Part shown: positions 1 to 5,357 of the stretch, one piece after another | Layout: every line of letters starts with the position of its first letter | Numbering within the stretch: the first letter of the stretch is position 1 | The notes under the pieces: model-generated | The model's input: the letters and a program-made list of their open reading frames with translations, nothing else | What the model was told of the DNA's origin: nothing | Databases searched by the model: none | Assembly (NCBI GenBank): GCA_040384705.1 | Contig: JAZKIU010000001.1 | Span: 542,053 to 606,052, forward strand | DNA length: 64,000 nucleotides | From: Patescibacteria group bacterium | GTDB lineage: Bacteria > Patescibacteriota > Minisyncoccia > Phycocordibacterales > Phycocordibacteraceae | Direction: 5' to 3' | Position numbers and translations under genes: made by a program

Positions 1-585
1 CTCCTTACGTTCGATACCCTCGCACGGCCCCGCCGTATGGAATTCGAGCCTATAGATATCCGCACGATAGCCGAGACGGTGCTGCGCCGTCACCTGGCCC
101 TCGCCAAGGAGCGCGGCATACAGCTCGCCATGGATTCAGGGCGCCCGGCGTTCGTTGAAGGCAATCAGACGGCGCTCGAGCAGGTGCTCACGAACCTCGT
201 GAAGAACGCCATCAATTACACCCCGCAGCATAAGGGCGGGCTGGTGCGGGTGCTGGTCGAGCCCGATCCGAGTGGAAGTACCGTCGTTACGGTGGCTGAT
301 ACCGGTATCGGTATAGACCAGAAGGACCTCTTCCATATATTCGAGCCCTTCTATCGTGGCGACACCTCGAGGGCGCGCGGCGTGGGCTCAGGGACGTCGG
401 GCCTTGGTCTGGCCATCGTGAACGAGATAGTGCGCATGCATAAGGGCAGCATATCCATACGCAGCGCGGTCGGGCGCGGTACGGCCGTGAAGATAACGTT
501 CCCGCCGGCGAGCGGCAACGATTTCAAGAACCCGCTGACCGGCGAGCAGGCAGGGATGCACGAAGTATCATTGGATTTCTCATAA
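1..585 (+). CDS. Sensor histidine kinase, C-terminal HATPase_c catalytic domain (5' partial, continues upstream of window)
   Basis: Reading frame open to window start; N-box/G1/G2 ATP-lid motifs (LVKNAINYT, VADTGIGI, GSGTSGLGLAIV) typical of HisKA-HATPase_c kinases. Confidence 0.85.
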   Translation, partial: LLTFDTLARPRRMEFEPIDIRTIAETVLRRHLALAKERGIQLAMDSGRPAFVEGNQTALEQVLTNLVKNAINYTPQHKGGLVRVLVEPDPSGSTVVTVADTGIGIDQKDLFHIFEPFYRGDTSRARGVGSGTSGLGLAIVNEIVRMHKGSISIRSAVGRGTAVKITFPPASGNDFKNPLTGEQAGMHEVSLDFS

Positions 586-864
586 AAGATTTACACAGGC
601 GATTTCATATTTCTTTCATATCCCGTTTCGTATAGTACCTGCACGAGGTCGAGGAGAGACGTGTGCGCACGGTCTCACCTTCCTCATACCTTAAGTTCTT
701 TCCCAGACCGGGCTCAACAACAGTTATGCATCGACGATTGCTACGCTTGCAACGACTAGATACGGGATTGTTGTTGACCCCGCGTCAGTAGCGTCCGCTA
801 TTCTCGAGATATGGCGCTACCGCATCCGTTTACAAGTCTGACGCTAATTTGAGCGCCCATATGA

Positions 865-922
865 GACGGAAAAACGCTTAGTGGCCGGCCCGGCTTCGTA
901 CGAGTACGAAGCCGGGCCGGCC
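865..922 (-). terminator. Intrinsic terminator downstream of pentapeptide-repeat gene (19-bp GC-rich stem GGCCGGCCCGGCTTCGTAC/GTACGAAGCCGGGCCGGCC then T-run on minus strand)
   Basis: Perfect long inverted repeat at about 883-922 followed on the minus strand by TTTTTCC. Confidence 0.55.
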
Positions 923-931
923 CTTTGCCGT

Positions 932-1558
932 TCAATCCTTTATATGGAGGCCGAATACCCCGGAAAGATAGAGCGCTTGGCCGGTGGTTACGGTCACGTT
1001 CTCGATGCTCGCCTTGTCCAGGCTGATATCCTCGAGGTTGGAGCCCGGGAACTGCACGTCATCAAGCTTCCCGGAGAGGAATTGCGCGCCCGTGAGATTG
1101 CAGTTACGGAACTCCACCTGCTCGAGCTCGGCGCCCAGGAAATCGCAGCCAACCATCTCGCACTTATCGAACAATACTTCCTTAAGCTTGCTGAAGCGGA
1201 AGTTCGCGCCATCGAGCTTGGAGGAGGCGAAGTGCACGTCCTGGAGCGTTGACTCGGCGAGCGTCGTACCTTGGAAGCGCGTTGATTTTATTAATACGCG
1301 GTCGAGCCGGCATTCGTATAGCTCGGTGCCGGTGAAGCTGCATTTATCGAATATGCAGTCGGTGATATCGGCTTCCGCAGTGTTCGCACCATCGAAGCTG
1401 GTGCTTTCGACCACGCACTTATCAAGGGTGAGCTTCTCGATCTTTCGTTCATCGAAGGCGCCACCTACGAGGATGGACTCCTCCATATATATCTCAGCGC
1501 CTGCCTCGGGCATGGCGTGAGCCAATCTCTCGCGCTTAACGTCGGGCTTGCGGACCAT
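932..1558 (-). CDS. Pentapeptide-repeat protein
   Basis: Translation is almost entirely tandem A(D/N)LxG-like pentapeptides (DVHFASSKLDGANFRFSKLKEVLFDKCEMVGCDFLGAELEQVEF...); ATG at 1558. Confidence 0.85.
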   Translation of the reverse strand: MVRKPDVKRERLAHAMPEAGAEIYMEESILVGGAFDERKIEKLTLDKCVVESTSFDGANTAEADITDCIFDKCSFTGTELYECRLDRVLIKSTRFQGTTLAESTLQDVHFASSKLDGANFRFSKLKEVLFDKCEMVGCDFLGAELEQVEFRNCNLTGAQFLSGKLDDVQFPGSNLEDISLDKASIENVTVTTGQALYLSGVFGLHIKD

Positions 1559-1582
1559 TTCACTATTCTAGCGTATGAGTGA

Positions 1583-1600
1583 TGGGACGATGTTGGAGCC
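1583..1600. repeat. Partial copy (GGGACGATGTTGGAGCC) of the 28-nt module-boundary element
   Basis: 17/18 identity to the 3' half of the element at 1806, 2453 and 3211. Confidence 0.5.
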
Positions 1601-1603
1601 GTA

Positions 1604-1791
1604 ATTGTAAGGTGGTAGTTTGGTATGGGTGCTTGAGCAACCCCAGCGAGGTGATCGGATCAGTATGCCGACCCAAGGCTGTAAGCCAGTGATTATGAGT
1701 GGCCTCGCCGTTAGGTAAGGAAACTCGTCCTGAACGGGACTAACTGGTGCTCAAGCACCCACCCTACGCACCACTGCTGGTGCGTTTTTTG
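1604..1791 (+). ncRNA. Candidate structured small RNA (unknown family) closed by a 13-bp long-range stem and ending in an intrinsic terminator
   Basis: No plausible ORF. GGGTGCTTGAGCA (1627-1639) pairs with TGCTCAAGCACCC (1748-1760), enclosing about 108 nt with internal hairpins (GTCCtgaacGGGAC). Terminator hairpin plus T7 at 1768-1791. Flanked by boundary-element copies. Confidence 0.35.
1768..1791 (+). terminator. Intrinsic terminator (GCACCA-ctgc-TGGTGC + TTTTTTT)
   Basis: Hairpin followed by 7 T. Confidence 0.7.
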
Positions 1792-1805
1792 TAATCACAA
1801 GGTAG

Positions 1806-1833
1806 CTGGGGGTCTGAGACGATGTTGGAACTC
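1806..1833. repeat. 28-nt module-boundary element copy 1 (GCTGGGGGTCTGAGACGATGTTGGAACT)
   Basis: Near-identical to copies at 2453 and 3211. Lies 15 nt after a terminator and 38 nt before a TTGACATATAC promoter. Confidence 0.8.
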
Positions 1834-1871
1834 ATATACGATTCCGGATCCGAATTTGAATAGATTGATAG

Positions 1872-1900
1872 TTGACATATACCTCTTAATATGCTTTTAT
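1872..1900 (+). promoter_or_regulatory. Sigma70-like promoter (TTGACA, 17-nt spacer, extended -10 TGcTTTTAT) upstream of alpha-CTD-like gene
   Basis: TTGACATATAC block shared with the promoter at 2493. Confidence 0.45.
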
Positions 1901-1946
1901 CTTTGCGAAGTACTTTGTTCCAAGACAATAGACATGAGGATGTGTC

Positions 1947-2342
1947 ATGACTTCTCCTTTCAGTGAACACGAAGAGGGATGTGCTCCGCTTCGCCCCTGC
2001 CGCAGCTGCCAAGCTGTGACCTTTCTGAAATCAAAGCTGAACAGCCGAGACTTCTCGGCCTTCATGGGTCTTTGCGGAGTGAGTGTGCCACCCGTGAAGA
2101 CGGAAGACCTCGCTCGCTCGCTCGAGGAGCTCAATTTTTCCGCTCGGACCTTCAACTGCCTGAGGAACGACAACATCAAGACCGTCGGTGACCTCGTTCG
2201 TCAAACGGAAGAAGGCCTGCTTCGAATGCCGAACTTCGGACGTCACGGTCTTGCGGAAATCAAAGAGACGCTGTCCAGTATCGGCCACTGTCTCGGTGAA
2301 CTTCCCTTCGAACCGAGGGTTGTGGCCGACGCTAGCAGCTAG
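1947..2342 (+). CDS. Free-standing RNA polymerase alpha-subunit C-terminal-domain-like protein (HhH) with Cys-rich N-terminal segment
   Basis: Residues about 55-115 (LEELNFSARTFNCLRNDNIKTVGDLVRQTEEGLLRMPNFGRHGLAEIKETL) match the RpoA CTD signature (E. coli ...LELSVRSANCLK...IGDLVQRTE..LLKTPNLGKKSLTEIKDVL). N-terminus has CAPLRPCRSCQ. Confidence 0.7.
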   Translation: MTSPFSEHEEGCAPLRPCRSCQAVTFLKSKLNSRDFSAFMGLCGVSVPPVKTEDLARSLEELNFSARTFNCLRNDNIKTVGDLVRQTEEGLLRMPNFGRHGLAEIKETLSSIGHCLGELPFEPRVVADASS

Positions 2343-2373
2343 CCTAGGGCATCCGGCACGACTCGTAACAAAA

Positions 2374-2410
2374 CCACCCCGCATTTGGATAATGCGGGGT
2401 GAACTTTTTA
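2374..2410 (+). terminator. Intrinsic terminator after alpha-CTD-like gene (CACCCCGCA-loop-TGCGGGGTG + AACTTTTT)
   Basis: 9-bp stem followed by a T-run. Confidence 0.6.
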
Positions 2411-2452
2411 TACAAGGGTTCGAGAATGCTCCAGCCAGTGGGGCTGAGCAGT

Positions 2453-2480
2453 GCTGGGGGTCTGGGACGATGTTGGAACC
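2453..2480. repeat. 28-nt module-boundary element copy 2 (GCTGGGGGTCTGGGACGATGTTGGAACC)
   Basis: Lies between a terminator (2374-2410) and a consensus promoter (2493-2521). Confidence 0.8.
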
Positions 2481-2492
2481 ACTGCGGATATG

Positions 2493-2521
2493 TTGACATA
2501 TACTATTATTTGATATATAAT
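2493..2521 (+). promoter_or_regulatory. Near-consensus sigma70 promoter (TTGACA, 17 nt, TATAAT) upstream of the 201-aa gene
   Basis: TTGACA at 2493-2498, spacer of exactly 17 nt, TATAAT at 2516-2521. GGAGAAGAG RBS precedes ATG 2551. Confidence 0.6.
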
Positions 2522-2550
2522 GGTATTGGAATTGGAAATGGAGAAGAGCG

Positions 2551-3156
2551 ATGTTCCAAGCAATCAAAGATTGGTGGTACAAGCGCCAATCCAAACAGTA
2601 TGCCCGGCTAGTCGTCAAACGGGTGAGGACACAGCCTGAGTCAGGAAATGTGCTTTCTGAACTGGTCTCCCTTAAGCAGGCGATTAAGTTCTGGGGCCTA
2701 ACGTTTACCGACGCAGGCATCACCGAAACTGAATTCAATGCCCTGTGGGAAGAAGCGGTAACACAGAAAGCCCTTAATAGAGACAAATATATCTCCCACA
2801 CGCTACGCGTGTTACGGAAAGAGATCTCTCCCAACCTGTGGCCTCAAATGTCAGAGTGGGGTGCGTTTGAAACGGATCCGTTCTGGCTCGAAGGCCAGAT
2901 CAAAGAATCGGGCCGCTCTCTTGAAGAGTACGGTACCTCGCCCGAAGAGCTTCATCGCTTTCAACGAGAGTGGCACAAGAAGAGCGCTGCTGAAACACTC
3001 GACGAGCTGCGATACAGAACGAGCTACGAACGTCACGGGATGCTGATGAGCATGCTCGTAGAGCACCTTCAGAAGGGCGAACTACCGCCAGAAGAAATCG
3101 GCACTACCCGGGAAGAAATCGAGCAACTTAGGGTTAAGCTCTACGCCAAGCCCTAG
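2551..3156 (+). CDS. Hypothetical protein (201 aa), no recognisable domain
   Basis: Clean ORF with RBS, consensus promoter and its own terminator. Confidence 0.7.
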   Translation: MFQAIKDWWYKRQSKQYARLVVKRVRTQPESGNVLSELVSLKQAIKFWGLTFTDAGITETEFNALWEEAVTQKALNRDKYISHTLRVLRKEISPNLWPQMSEWGAFETDPFWLEGQIKESGRSLEEYGTSPEELHRFQREWHKKSAAETLDELRYRTSYERHGMLMSMLVEHLQKGELPPEEIGTTREEIEQLRVKLYAKP

Positions 3157-3162
3157 AATACT

Positions 3163-3200
3163 CCGTTCGACAAAGCAATTTGTCGGACGGTTTCTTTTTG
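3163..3200 (+). terminator. Intrinsic terminator (CCGTTCGACAAA-gcaa-TTTGTCGGACGG + TTTCTTTTTG)
   Basis: 12-bp stem followed by a T-run immediately after the stop at 3156. Confidence 0.6.
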
Positions 3201-3210
3201 TCTTAAAATT

Positions 3211-3238
3211 GCTGGGGGTCTGGGACGATATTGGAACC
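3211..3238. repeat. 28-nt module-boundary element copy 3 (GCTGGGGGTCTGGGACGATATTGGAACC), array end
   Basis: Follows terminator 3163-3200. No promoter or + strand gene follows. Confidence 0.8.
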
Positions 3239-3246
3239 GTCCTGAG

Positions 3247-3591
3247 CTAATTCCCCACTGTTACGTATACCAAACACACGAGACCAAAGACCGCTGCCCA
3301 TACCACTGCCGCAGAAGCAAAATCCTTGCTCCGTCCAATTGCTTCATCGTGCGTGGGATGGATTTTAGTAAGTGCCGTCTCGATGGCCGAGTTCTGAAGC
3401 TCGGTAACGACAACGAAGAACCAGCTGAATACGAGCAGCAACACCTCACCTGCTGTGAGGTTGAATATGAAATAAACGATAGGGAGTCCTATGACCAGTA
3501 GTGCTGTCTCGATACGAATTGCGTCATCGTGTAGGAACCCGTACTTCAATCCTCGAAATGGATGCGATAGTCGCTTGATCCAATACTCCAT
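3247..3591 (-). CDS. dgkA: Diacylglycerol kinase / undecaprenol kinase family (prokaryotic DgkA)
   Basis: ELQNSAIETA...HDEAIGRSKDFASAAVVWAAV matches the DgkA signature (E. coli EILNSAIEAVVDRIG..HELSGRAKDMGSAAVLIAIIV). Three TM helices. Confidence 0.85.
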   Translation of the reverse strand: MEYWIKRLSHPFRGLKYGFLHDDAIRIETALLVIGLPIVYFIFNLTAGEVLLLVFSWFFVVVTELQNSAIETALTKIHPTHDEAIGRSKDFASAAVVWAAVFGLVCLVYVTVGN

Positions 3592-3637
3592 AGAATCAGT
3601 ATATCTCTAGCTGGGAGATTAGGTTTCGAACCTTAGC

Positions 3638-4414
3638 TTACGACTTAATCCCTGCGCCCTTGTGGAAGAGATAGAGCGTCACGATGAACGCGACAAGAGT
3701 GAGTCCTCCCATGACCCCGAACGCGAGCGAGAGCGGTACGTCAGAGATACCGAGGAATCCGTAGCGGAATGCATTCACCATGTAGAGGATTGGGTTGAAC
3801 AAGGAGACGATGCGGAAGAACTCCGGCAGCTGGTCGATGGAGTAGAAGATACCGCCAAGGTACGTAAGCGGGGTGAGCACGAAGGTCGGCACGATGTTGA
3901 TGGCATCGAACGACTTTGCATAGATGGCATTGATGAGACCGAGGAGCGAGAACAGGAGCGCGGTAAGGAACGCTGCCCCGAAGACGACCGCCATCGAGAA
4001 CAGGGTCAGGTGCGTGAAGAAGAGGGAGACCGCGATAACGATGACGCCCACGAGGAAGGCACGAAGCACGCCTCCCGACACATAGCCTGCAACGACGGTC
4101 CACGACGGCATCGGCGACACGAGTATCTCATGAATGGTCTTGAGCCACTTCGCGAAATAGAAGGTGGAGACGGTATTCATGTAGGAGCTCGTGATGACGG
4201 ACATCATGACGAGGCCCGGCACGATGAACTGTATGTACGGGAACCCGTCGATTGCGTCCACCTGGCTCCCGATGAACGTACCGAATATGGCGAAGTAGAG
4301 CGCCATGGTGATAGCGGGCGGAAGCAGCGTCTGGGACCAGATGCGTATGATGCGCATGAAGTCCTTGCGGACCATGGTGTAGTAACCGATGAGGATTGGA
4401 GAGCGGGTAGCCAT
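3638..4414 (-). CDS. ABC-2 type transporter permease
   Basis: Six-TM protein of ABC-2 family type; start abuts the stop of the upstream ATPase gene. Confidence 0.85.
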   Translation of the reverse strand: MATRSPILIGYYTMVRKDFMRIIRIWSQTLLPPAITMALYFAIFGTFIGSQVDAIDGFPYIQFIVPGLVMMSVITSSYMNTVSTFYFAKWLKTIHEILVSPMPSWTVVAGYVSGGVLRAFLVGVIVIAVSLFFTHLTLFSMAVVFGAAFLTALLFSLLGLINAIYAKSFDAINIVPTFVLTPLTYLGGIFYSIDQLPEFFRIVSLFNPILYMVNAFRYGFLGISDVPLSLAFGVMGGLTLVAFIVTLYLFHKGAGIKS

Positions 4415-4415
4415 A

Positions 4416-5357
4416 TTATTTCTTTATGAGGTTCACGAATACTTCTTCGAGGCGGCTTCCGCTGTTGCGGATGTTCGCTATCTGGATGCCATTGGCCGAT
4501 ATCTTGCGCATGGCGTCGTTCACGGTCTCGCCCGGCTTAAGCGTTATCTCGAGCGTATTCTCGTCGGTACGCTTCACGTTGAGGTCGCGGAGCAATACCA
4601 TCGTCGCGTCCTTTATCGGCTCAGTGGCGTCGAGGATGAGCGTGACGTAGTTGAGCTTAGTGACGAGCTCCTTCACGGTCCCCTCCTCGATGATGACGCC
4701 CCCATTGATGATGGCGACCCGATTCGCGAGCATTTCAGCCTCCTCGAGGTAGTGGGTAGTGAGCACGATGGTGGTGCCGGAAGCCGATAGCTCGCGGAGG
4801 AAGTCCCACATCCCGCGACGCAGCTCGACGTCGACGCCTGCGGTCGGCTCGTCGAGAAGGAGCACCTTCGGCTCGTGGATGAGCGCGCGGGCGATGAGGA
4901 GACGACGCTTCATGCCTCCTGAGAGGTGCTGGGCCTGCGCATCCTTCTTCTCCCAGAGCCCGAGGTCCTTGAGAATCTTCTCCGCGCGCACGAGCGCGTC
5001 TGCACGGCTCACGCCGTAGTATCCGGCCTGGGTGACGATGATATTGATGACCTTCTCGAAGATATCGAAGTTGAACTCCTGGGGCACGAGACCGATATAC
5101 GACTTCGCTTTGTCGGGGTTCGTCGTCGCATCCACTCCGTGAATCTCGACCGTCCCCTCGCTCTTGTTCACGAGGCCCGAAAGTATGCCGATGAGGGTCG
5201 TCTTTCCGGCGCCGTTAGGGCCAAGGAGCGCAAGGAACTCGCCCTCTTTGACCGAGAGCGACACGCCCTTCAGGGCTTCTACGGGCGGCTGCTTCTTATC
5301 GGCTGGATAGGTCTTCGTGAGGTCGGTTACATGGATCGCATTGGTCTTTTCTGGCAT
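4416..5357 (-). CDS. ABC transporter ATP-binding protein
   Basis: Walker A GPNGAGKTT, signature LSGGMKRR, Walker B LLLDEPTAGVD, H-loop. Start trimmed to ATG 5357 (MPEKTNAIH...). The longer ORF to 5906 would overlap the GtrA gene and adds only an acidic non-homologous N-terminus. Confidence 0.85.
   Translation of the reverse strand: MPEKTNAIHVTDLTKTYPADKKQPPVEALKGVSLSVKEGEFLALLGPNGAGKTTLIGILSGLVNKSEGTVEIHGVDATTNPDKAKSYIGLVPQEFNFDIFEKVINIIVTQAGYYGVSRADALVRAEKILKDLGLWEKKDAQAQHLSGGMKRRLLIARALIHEPKVLLLDEPTAGVDVELRRGMWDFLRELSASGTTIVLTTHYLEEAEMLANRVAIINGGVIIEEGTVKELVTKLNYVTLILDATEPIKDATMVLLRDLNVKRTDENTLEITLKPGETVNDAMRKISANGIQIANIRNSGSRLEEVFVNLIKK

Follow-up and report, generated by a model that had tools for sequence, protein, structure and literature searches.

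Integrons and clusters of attC sites lacking integron integrases (CALINs) are unidirectional arrays of small, mostly single-gene, diverse and often ORFan cassettes separated by a conserved site, attC, a hairpin of 55-140 bp that is conserved in structure. Integron cassettes are mostly promoterless and depend on a common promoter, Pc, and a distinct primary site, attI, lies at one end of the integron; CALINs have no adjacent integrase. The 3' ends of tRNA genes are a classic source of att repeats for integrative elements, and the elements that target them, together with the cis-mobilizable elements (CIMEs), measure from kilobases to hundreds of kilobases. The pdif modules of Acinetobacter plasmids, which are XerC/XerD-dependent, consist of small gene modules between 28-bp sites, dif-like imperfect palindromes in alternating orientation, and are reshuffled between replicons by an enzyme encoded elsewhere. 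The genomic islands of Prochlorococcus reportedly carry repeated partial tRNA genes (Coleman et al. 2006). Here, an array of gene cassettes was analyzed in a 64-kb stretch from a Patescibacteria group bacterium (assembly GCA_040384705.1, contig JAZKIU010000001.1, positions 542,053 to 606,052; hereafter the window, with positions counted from its first letter). The cassettes are bounded by a junction element of ~35 bp, named E, and the array closes with a terminal tRNA-type element, named T. Arrays with E were also found in other Patescibacteria, and their loci carry L numbers below.

The arrays work like integrons or CALINs and like tandem accretion at a tRNA gene, yet they belong to neither class. 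As in integrons and CALINs, small, diverse and often ORFan units, mostly of a single gene, lie in one direction with a conserved site between them, and their content varied when close relatives were compared. T takes the end position that attI has in integrons, and no integrase was adjacent, as in CALINs. In contrast to the attC hairpin, E is 35 bp long, non-palindromic, conserved in sequence and derived from tRNA-Gln; each cassette brings its own promoter and terminator, IntI was not found, and several arrays occur per genome. As in tRNA-targeting elements and CIMEs, the direct repeats were found to copy a tRNA 3' end, the array abuts such an end in nine loci (but not in the window or in 14 others), integrase-less units are stacked between att-like repeats, and a partial tRNA duplicate stands beside the intact gene in L062. 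Unlike those elements, each unit holds one gene in 0.3-1 kb, up to 11 repeats lie on one 6-kb contig (L097), and most arrays end in a 26-nt relic without a tRNA gene; the units hold no integrase, and no cognate integrase-bearing element was seen. E also differs in a conserved 5-nt insertion, because of which it cannot restore the tRNA. With pdif modules the arrays share small gene modules bounded by short recombination sites and an enzyme that would be encoded elsewhere, whereas the E copies are all direct, tRNA-derived and not dif-like; a Xer-like enzyme would be possible in principle, and only L088 has such a gene nearby. Repeated tRNA 3' fragments in hypervariable islands, read as scars of repeated site-specific integration, are common to the Prochlorococcus islands and the arrays, although the former have few repeats and large phage-related segments and the latter a dedicated conserved derivative at every gene. 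Literature searches returned no description of E or of such arrays in the Candidate Phyla Radiation (CPR).

In the window, the 27-mer GCTGGGGGTCTGRGACGATRTTGGAAC was found exactly at 1805-1831, 2453-2479 and 3211-3237, all on the plus strand, with none expected (100 shuffles), and a partial copy at 1582-1599 has the core GGGACGATGTTGGA in common with the full copies. Sequence and profile searches of the 64 kb revealed no E beyond these three full copies and one partial copy, all of which lay within 1.7 kb. The initial annotation, made from the letters of the window, had described a 28-nt element in the same three full copies and one partial copy; this 28-mer is the core of E, the consensus of which is tATTGCTGG-NNN-TCTGGGACGATGTTGGAACC. 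Three direct YTGGRR repeats with a spacing of 8-10 nt could be read in E. A terminator had been reported before every copy. Terminator-like hairpins with T tracts (stems at 1766-1785, 2375-2401 and 3163-3190) indeed ended ~14, 42 and 11 nt upstream of the three full copies (E1, E2 and E3), but the partial copy (E0) had no terminator in front of it, and the start codon of a divergent pentapeptide-repeat gene was 24 nt away. Likewise, the promoter block TTGACATATAC, reported for the first three copies, was present at 1872 and 2493 and was not present at E0; the distance from E to the promoter was 40 and 13 nt, respectively. The 42-nt gap before E2 was unusually long, which a putative relic of an inverted E within it would explain. 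The Logan assembly of SRR26324625 breaks at E2 (L001 ends at 2404, L002 starts at 2450) and lacks the 45 nt between the terminator and E2, which is consistent with a repeat-induced break or with population-level branching at the junction. The order of the window array is E0-RNA-E1-alphaCTD-E2-ORFan-E3-DAGK(reversed)-T, where alphaCTD is a gene for a protein like the C-terminal domain of the RNA polymerase alpha subunit (alpha-CTD) and DAGK a diacylglycerol-kinase-like gene. The enclosed modules named in the initial annotation, a structured RNA, an alpha-CTD-like protein and a 201-aa protein without other relative, were all borne out (Table 1).

An exact search with a 23-mer of E found 25 stretches in species-representative genomes, all of them metagenome-assembled genomes (MAGs) of Patescibacteria (Paceibacterota/Parcubacteria, Kaiserbacteria and some labelled Saccharibacteria), and 45 more metagenome loci, also from Patescibacteria and many from Hainich groundwater, for a total of 70 loci. 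These loci were retrieved by the presence of E, and array frequencies among them are therefore biased. A profile built from these loci detected 2-12 E copies per locus on a single strand with a spacing of 0.3-1 kb; 11 copies were found on the 6.2-kb contig of L097, and the MAG H51-bin099_1 had at least five arrays in one genome. The 19-nt core of E was almost invariant though the flanks ranged visibly from AT-rich to GC-rich. A strict hairpin with a T run occurred within 75 nt upstream in 66/146 non-redundant copies, mostly at 5-20 nt, against 14/148 in the downstream control. The arrays were polar: an E with a degenerate left half came first, the cassettes followed head to tail, and T came last. 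The left half of the first E was weak (8.1/11 matches vs 10.0/11 in internal copies), and its right half was normal. About one quarter of the copies (the "full" variant) extended into the conserved CCyTTaTGCAAynnTGnTAGGnTTCTGTCYAGA. This variant formed an imperfect palindrome, with 93% of cells paired over 24 sequences vs at most 52% in slid controls and one covarying pair, a pattern that fits a DNA or RNA structure and a pair of half-sites equally. A variable tetranucleotide in E was specific to the array or genome (GGGG in L097; GCAG, GCCA or GCTG in L025, L095 and L027). The cassette ORFs were small, mutually unrelated and mostly ORFan; a second alpha-CTD protein, an alpha/beta hydrolase, an EEP-family nuclease/phosphatase, a NUDIX hydrolase and DUF6122 were among the cargo.

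E is a derivative of the 3' end of tRNA-Gln(UUG), in reverse complement and with the 5-nt insertion. When the reverse complement of E was aligned with tRNA-Gln(UUG), the match included the T loop, ran through the discriminator and continued for a few bases, with 21/24 identities and one 5-nt gap; the shuffle p was <0.002 for the tRNAs of L013 and L083 and 0.004-0.01 for three others. The two sequences also covaried between lineages: in AT-rich lineages E reads GCTCGGGG... and the tRNA-Gln acceptor ...CCCCGAGC, and in other lineages E has GCTGGGGG and the acceptor CCCCCAG. The arrays of L005, L018, L025 and L021 closed with a conserved "degenerate" element, TTGCTGGCAGACTAGGTATCGAACC, which is the reverse complement of a tRNA 3' end. 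A tRNA-Gln profile detected this element, T, in 24 loci, and 25/25 hits lay downstream of the last E in the opposite orientation. The sequence of T, (t)ATTGCTGG(C/G)AGACTAGG(T/G)(A/T)TCGAACC, has no 5-nt insertion; its left half is E-like and its right half tRNA-type. T was part of a real tRNA-Gln gene in nine loci and a relic of 26-55 nt in 15 loci, including the window, where the relic measured 23 nt. In eight loci, ARAGORN placed the tRNA-Gln gene just past the downstream array end and oriented with its 3' end towards the array; in the ninth (L095) the gene was cut by the contig end. Position 3610-3632 of the window agreed with the T consensus from the other loci without mismatch, with no such match expected (100 shuffles), and the nhmmer match of the tRNA-Gln profile covered tRNA positions 48-72. 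The statement of the initial annotation that no standard feature class explains the element was therefore too strong, since E derives from a tRNA-Gln 3' end. In L062 (7773-7943), the array was followed by a partial tRNA-Gln (55 nt, tRNA positions 17-72), 40 nt and an intact tRNA-Gln(UUG), the arrangement classically left by integration at a tRNA 3' end.

Comparison of the loci showed that E marks the borders of single-gene cassettes that can be exchanged independently of one another; every cassette comprises a promoter of its own, an ORF or RNA, and a terminator. The L064 locus corresponded to the L009 locus with one extra cassette of ~0.93 kb, which was flanked by an E copy on either side. 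In L009, the one E present combined the left variants of one of these flanking copies with the right variants of the other, and the crossover therefore lay inside CGATGTTGGAAC. A 390-nt unit (E, promoter, ORF, terminator, E) was 84% identical between L094 and L027, with unrelated sequences on both sides, and a second unit was common to L097 and L021 (85%), next to different left neighbours. L019, L085 and L089 formed a three-way mosaic around one E, and L005, L018 and L025, with both flanking genes in common, had 2, 1 and at least 8 elements, respectively. L079 was 88.8% identical to the window over 1-1575; the homology ended exactly at E0, and another cassette lay beyond it. Related genomes thus compared differed in the number and content of their cassettes. 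Of the interpretation in the initial annotation, which was partly supported, the likeness to integron or cassette arrays was upheld: arrays are present in many Patescibacteria, their content varies between close relatives, cassettes recur between different neighbours, and breakpoints fall inside E.

Relatives of the window locus itself were found through its ATP-binding cassette (ABC) permease gene. The homology of L110 and L111 to the window covered 1-488 and 876-926 and then resumed at 3663-5279. These two loci were empty: a histidine kinase gene, a non-coding region with its terminator and the ABC permease gene were contiguous, without E or T, and the terminator was 15 nt from the stop codon of the permease gene. 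In L112, T was ~15 nt from the permease stop codon, and two E copies with different cassettes preceded it. The empty relatives and L112 therefore identify 927-3637 as an insertion that includes the pentapeptide-repeat gene. In L108-L111 this gene was missing from the interval between the histidine kinase gene and the ABC permease gene, and the close relative L079 has it. In the window, no E was detectable to the left of the gene. The DAGK-like gene was absent at the locus in L108-L113; this absence and its position between E3 and T make it a probable fourth cassette. T sits between the start codon of the DAGK-like gene and the stop codon of the ABC permease gene. The feature is wider than the extent of 1580-3240 originally proposed and covers ~927-3637; T, the probable DAGK cassette and the inclusion of the pentapeptide-repeat gene had been missed. 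The higher AT content noted at the outset was also found (GC 0.46-0.51 inside, 0.55-0.62 outside), and the low-GC stretch reached ~3650.

With a confidence only a little above even, we favour the reading that E and T are att-like repeats of an integron-like accretion array in which T acts as attI and E as attC. Cassettes would enter and leave through recombination at E and T. Circular cassettes with one E each would insert into T one after another, which would yield exactly the order observed, where the first site is a hybrid and full E copies lead up to T. A trans-acting, site-specific recombinase, tyrosine-type and directed at the tRNA-Gln 3' end, would be the most likely enzyme, and the service of the TTGGAA of E as the -35 of the next cassette in about one quarter of the copies would be a secondary use. 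Several results weigh against this reading. When the window and all loci were searched by tblastn with manually entered XerD, IntI1 and resolvase queries, only one Xer-like gene was found, in L088, and clustering of the array-flanking ORFs gave no recurrent neighbour family. The core sites of tyrosine recombinases are inverted repeats and E is not; only the "full" variant, about one quarter of the copies, is an imperfect palindrome, with its one covarying pair. The crossover position was not fixed, as L077/L091 and L027/L094 diverged already in the left half of E. L110 and L111 lack a T-like target; T therefore travels with the island and is not an attB that was already present at this locus. 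ARAGORN found no tRNA gene in the 64-kb window, and the profile search found no T in ten loci with enough room for it.

Other searches for an enzyme gave the following results. No integrase or recombinase was found in the 64-kb window by tblastn, and none was found inside any cassette or array of the E-bearing loci by ORF scans, motif regular expressions and tblastn. The gene in L088 (4768-5565, minus strand) was XerC/D-like, with E = 4e-38 for the XerD query and 3e-23 for IntI1; it lay ~0.9 kb upstream of the first E, with two cold-shock genes and a gene for a small membrane protein between it and the array. ORFs with a reverse-transcriptase motif (YxDD) stood directly beside arrays in L006 (7090-7917, minus strand) and L024 (428-1543, plus strand); the N-terminal motif of the L024 ORF resembled those of diversity-generating retroelements or retrons by eye, and two RVT_1 hits were found among the flank ORFs. 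A bolder proposal, which we hold to be doubtful, is that the arrays represent a dedicated gene-capture system of Patescibacteria, parallel to integrons and independently evolved from a tRNA-Gln site, with a trans-acting enzyme that would recombine T as the primary and E as the cassette-borne site, and with several arrays of insulated and self-expressed single-gene cassettes in a genome of ~1 Mb.

The main rival explanation is homologous recombination: E and T would be short portable homology arms used by RecA without a dedicated recombinase, and concerted evolution and frequent exchange would keep E uniform. It is a serious rival because no linked recombinase was found, crossovers vary in position, E is not an inverted repeat, and the empty locus has no T, and we regard it as possible though distinctly less probable than att-like accretion. 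Cassettes would be swapped, lost and gained in this way, for instance after natural transformation, the machinery of which Patescibacteria carry. The breakpoints fell at differing places inside E between pairs of loci, the array- and genome-specific tetranucleotides look like homogenisation, and the "full" element gives ~62 nt of identity. However, the 35 nt of E at most just reach the minimum that RecA usually needs for efficient recombination. The 19-nt core is near-invariant though the flanking genes differ by >25%, for which recognition by a protein is the simpler explanation; the architecture, in which a hybrid site comes first, full E copies follow and T closes the array, is predicted by successive site-specific insertion into T and is no requirement of homologous recombination; and a tRNA-derived site is a signature of integrase targets.

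In a third explanation, which we judge improbable, E is mainly cis-regulatory, an operator or activating site with a -35 for the regulon of one DNA-binding protein, possibly the alpha-CTD-like protein, and the mosaicism is a by-product. A TAnnnT hexamer, usually with an upstream TG, followed the TTGGAA of E by 16-18 nt, the distance of a -10, in 33/140 copies (24%), compared with 10 on average and 18 at most in shuffles. By its placement, the "full" variant offers the TTGGAA of E as a -35, TG as an extended -10 and TAGGnT as a -10, and a ribosome-binding site and ATG come next; this -35 use in one quarter of the copies is real even if a purely regulatory role is improbable. For the RNA genes in the window and L010, the preceding E supplies TTGGAG or TTGGAA at -35 distance, E has its three direct YTGGRR repeats, and alpha-CTD-like proteins recur as cassettes. 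Nevertheless, an operator would have a fixed position and orientation, and only 24% of the copies were at -35 distance; the remaining copies had an ordinary promoter at a variable distance downstream (5, 9, 16, 24 and 32 nt outside the window) or nothing, so that the distance between E and promoter ranged from 0 to >40 nt. Three Pfam-verified cassette genes, in L004, L017 and L022, were antisense to E, and the alpha-CTD cassette of L107 was inverted relative to its E copies. For the lone E copies of L014 and L023, and for E3 of the window, the gene ahead was convergent, with its 3' end towards E. Neither the terminal T nor the origin of E from a tRNA is explained by this reading. The operator sites for one DNA-binding protein suggested in the initial annotation are accordingly disfavoured, given the variable spacing, the at least three antisense genes and the lone or terminal copies without a downstream gene.

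E might instead be a selfish repeat resembling repetitive extragenic palindromic (REP) sequences, miniature inverted-repeat transposable elements (MITEs) or Correia elements, or an RNA processing signal, tRNA-like on the minus strand, with no link to mobility. E is indeed short, conserved, intergenic and multi-copy, with a tRNA-like sequence on the minus strand, but this explanation seems very unlikely. The four copies were clustered in 1.7 kb of the 64-kb window rather than dispersed, E had no inverted symmetry or terminal inverted repeats, no target-site duplications were noted, and the copies coincided with cassette boundaries and homology breakpoints. The reverse complement of E could not form a T arm because of the 5-nt insertion, and a minus-strand transcript is not expected because most cassette genes are on the plus strand. 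A genuine integron or CALIN, with E as an attC recombined by an IntI-type integrase, is the least credible of all: the arrays have one orientation and many small ORFan cassettes, the core GTTGGAA fits GTTRRRY at 6/7 positions, and a fold of the "full" variant with two stems, an unpaired spacer and a variable loop is possible, but no IntI-like gene was found by tblastn in the window or ~70 loci, the 35-nt E is non-palindromic and about three quarters of the junctions have no second arm, the cassettes carry their own promoters and terminators, and E derives from tRNA-Gln. In the literature searched, integrons are connected with Patescibacteria only in passing.

Some further identities were tried and rejected. 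A CRISPR-like array did not fit, as the units are 0.3-1 kb and gene-bearing. A LexA-bound SOS box, considered for two S24 peptidases near arrays, was rejected since the motif matches no known type of LexA palindrome. The spacing did not fit sigma-54 or extracytoplasmic function (ECF) promoters, and a dif/Xer site was dismissed because several arrays occur per genome and E is not palindromic. A BLAST search of phages and plasmids with the 64-nt "full" element gave no match. In a viral collection, the 19-mer core had 34 matches, all in one family (L028-L061, IMG/VR contigs), which were single coding copies without an array. The matching 24-mer, GTCTGGGACGATGTTGGAACCTTC, lies inside a GC-rich phage C5 DNA methyltransferase ORF (..VVWDDVGTFDG..GYPCQPFS), for example at L033 6148-6166. 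It probably arose by chance and was multiplied within a single gene family; ~0.4 chance 19-mer matches were expected in the collection, and the observed 23-24 identical bases exceed this expectation.

Table 1. Features of the cassette island in the 64-kb window (positions in window coordinates).
Feature	Position	Strand	Evidence or remarks
Whole island, 2.7-kb insertion vs empty relatives	927..3637		From the terminator of the non-coding region 3' of the histidine kinase gene to the ABC-2 permease stop codon
Pentapeptide-repeat protein gene, leftmost cargo	932..1558	-	Pfam Pentapeptide_4, 1.1e-30
E0, first junction element	1576..1600	+	Left half degenerate, right half conserved (GGGACGATGTTGGAGCC); TTGGAG positioned as -35 of the RNA
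Putative promoter before the RNA, TTGGAG-17 nt-TAGTTT	1593..1621 (TTGGAG 1593-1598, TAGTTT 1616-1621)	+	Read from sequence
Cassette 1: structured RNA with intrinsic terminator (1766-1791)	1627..1791	+	Minimum free energy -77 kcal/mol, z = -3.7
E1, full junction element	1803..1834	+	Exact 27-mer; nhmmer E = 1.4e-9
Cassette 2 promoter-like region, TTGATA-16-TAATAT	1865..1892	+	Motif match; overlaps TTGACATATAC at 1872
Cassette 2 gene: stand-alone RNA polymerase alpha-CTD-like protein, 131 aa	1947..2342	+	PF03118 RNA_pol_A_CTD, E = 4.6e-21; homologs P0001-P0003
Cassette 2 terminator	2375..2410	+	Homologous to the L107 terminator
Putative inverted-E relic, GGGTTCGAGAATGCTCCAGCCAGTGGGGC	2417..2445	-	Aligned by eye against the L107 copies
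E2, full junction element	2450..2481	+	Exact 27-mer; nhmmer E = 3.3e-11
Cassette 3 consensus sigma-70 promoter, TTGACA-17-TATAAT	2493..2521	+	12/12 matches
Cassette 3 gene: 201-aa ORFan	2551..3156	+	No Pfam family above cut-off
Cassette 3 terminator	3163..3199	+	Hairpin and T tract
E3, full junction element	3208..3240	+	Exact 27-mer; nhmmer E = 7.7e-11
Probable cassette 4: DAGK-like gene, reversed vs E	3247..3591	-	PF01219, 2.7e-22; GC 0.48
T, terminal tRNA-type element, GCTGGGAGATTAGGTTTCGAACC	3610..3632	+	Reverse complement of tRNA-Gln 3' end (T arm and acceptor strand), without the 5-nt insertion of E; relic, no tRNA gene

The RNA of cassette 1 belongs to an unnamed family of structured RNAs of ~150-200 nt, with members in L010 (4335-4552, minus strand) and L019 (2553-2752, plus strand) in addition to the window; its 3' end was also found in L085 (1-100). 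The family has a 12-bp closing stem with three covarying pairs and a terminator of its own. The RNA was the first array unit in all four loci in which it was seen (window, L010, L019 and L085), a biased sample fetched by E. The degenerate E before the RNA offers TTGGAA or TTGGAG at or near -35 distance, and the L010 homolog has an arrangement matching that of the window (TTGGAA-17-TAACCT). Rfam gave nothing at gathering score in the 64-kb window and only chance-level hits at E<=10 in 550-3700 and the RNA regions of L010 and L019. A role as bridge or guide RNA was considered and rejected, as no convincing complementarity to E was conserved in the three homologs. The structured RNA might work with the trans-acting enzyme of a capture system.

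Stand-alone alpha-CTD cassettes recurred in L026 (787-1245) and L107 (445-840). The proteins close to that of the window have an N-terminal Cys-rich stretch, C-x5-C-x2-C, and a paralog, P0003, is encoded on the same 640-kb contig of the window genome (68% identical). The gene of the window is annotated in the NCBI MAG from an internal start, as 92 aa. Its L107 homolog was 63% identical and kept the TTGACA and TAATAT of the promoter; it was flanked by two copies of GGTTCTAACCTCCTC, a diverged inverted E, which occupy the same positions around the cassette as in the window. The 201-aa protein of cassette 3 retrieved itself alone among 5.8 billion proteins. A NUDIX hydrolase cassette was found in three different arrays (L020 4180-4716, L069 865-1383 and L071 964-1434). 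The dnaX gene (DNA polymerase III tau) adjoined arrays in four loci (L013, L020, L062 and L073), and some array positions are therefore conserved. Outside the island, a conserved non-coding region lay 3' of the histidine kinase gene in the window (~640-925, plus strand), L079 (1075-1365, minus strand) and L110 (8780-9080, minus strand). A long stem lies inside this region, its GC-rich terminator of 19 bp shows compensatory changes, and the region was kept in the relatives without the island; Rfam held no family for it, and a single chance miRNA hit fell on the terminator.

Patescibacteria have tiny genomes in which few mobile elements have been described, and their strain-specific gene acquisition is poorly understood. 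The arrays would represent a compact, modular route of gene gain and loss that operates at several loci per genome. Should there be a dedicated recombinase, an integron-like system would have evolved independently for a second time, here on the basis of a tRNA att site, and the arrays would offer a landing pad for genetic tools in organisms that are very hard to manipulate. If there is no recombinase, they would show short portable homology arms organising a pan-genome. In either case, E and T provide a sequence handle for the hypervariable regions of CPR MAGs and for the assembly breaks that result from them.

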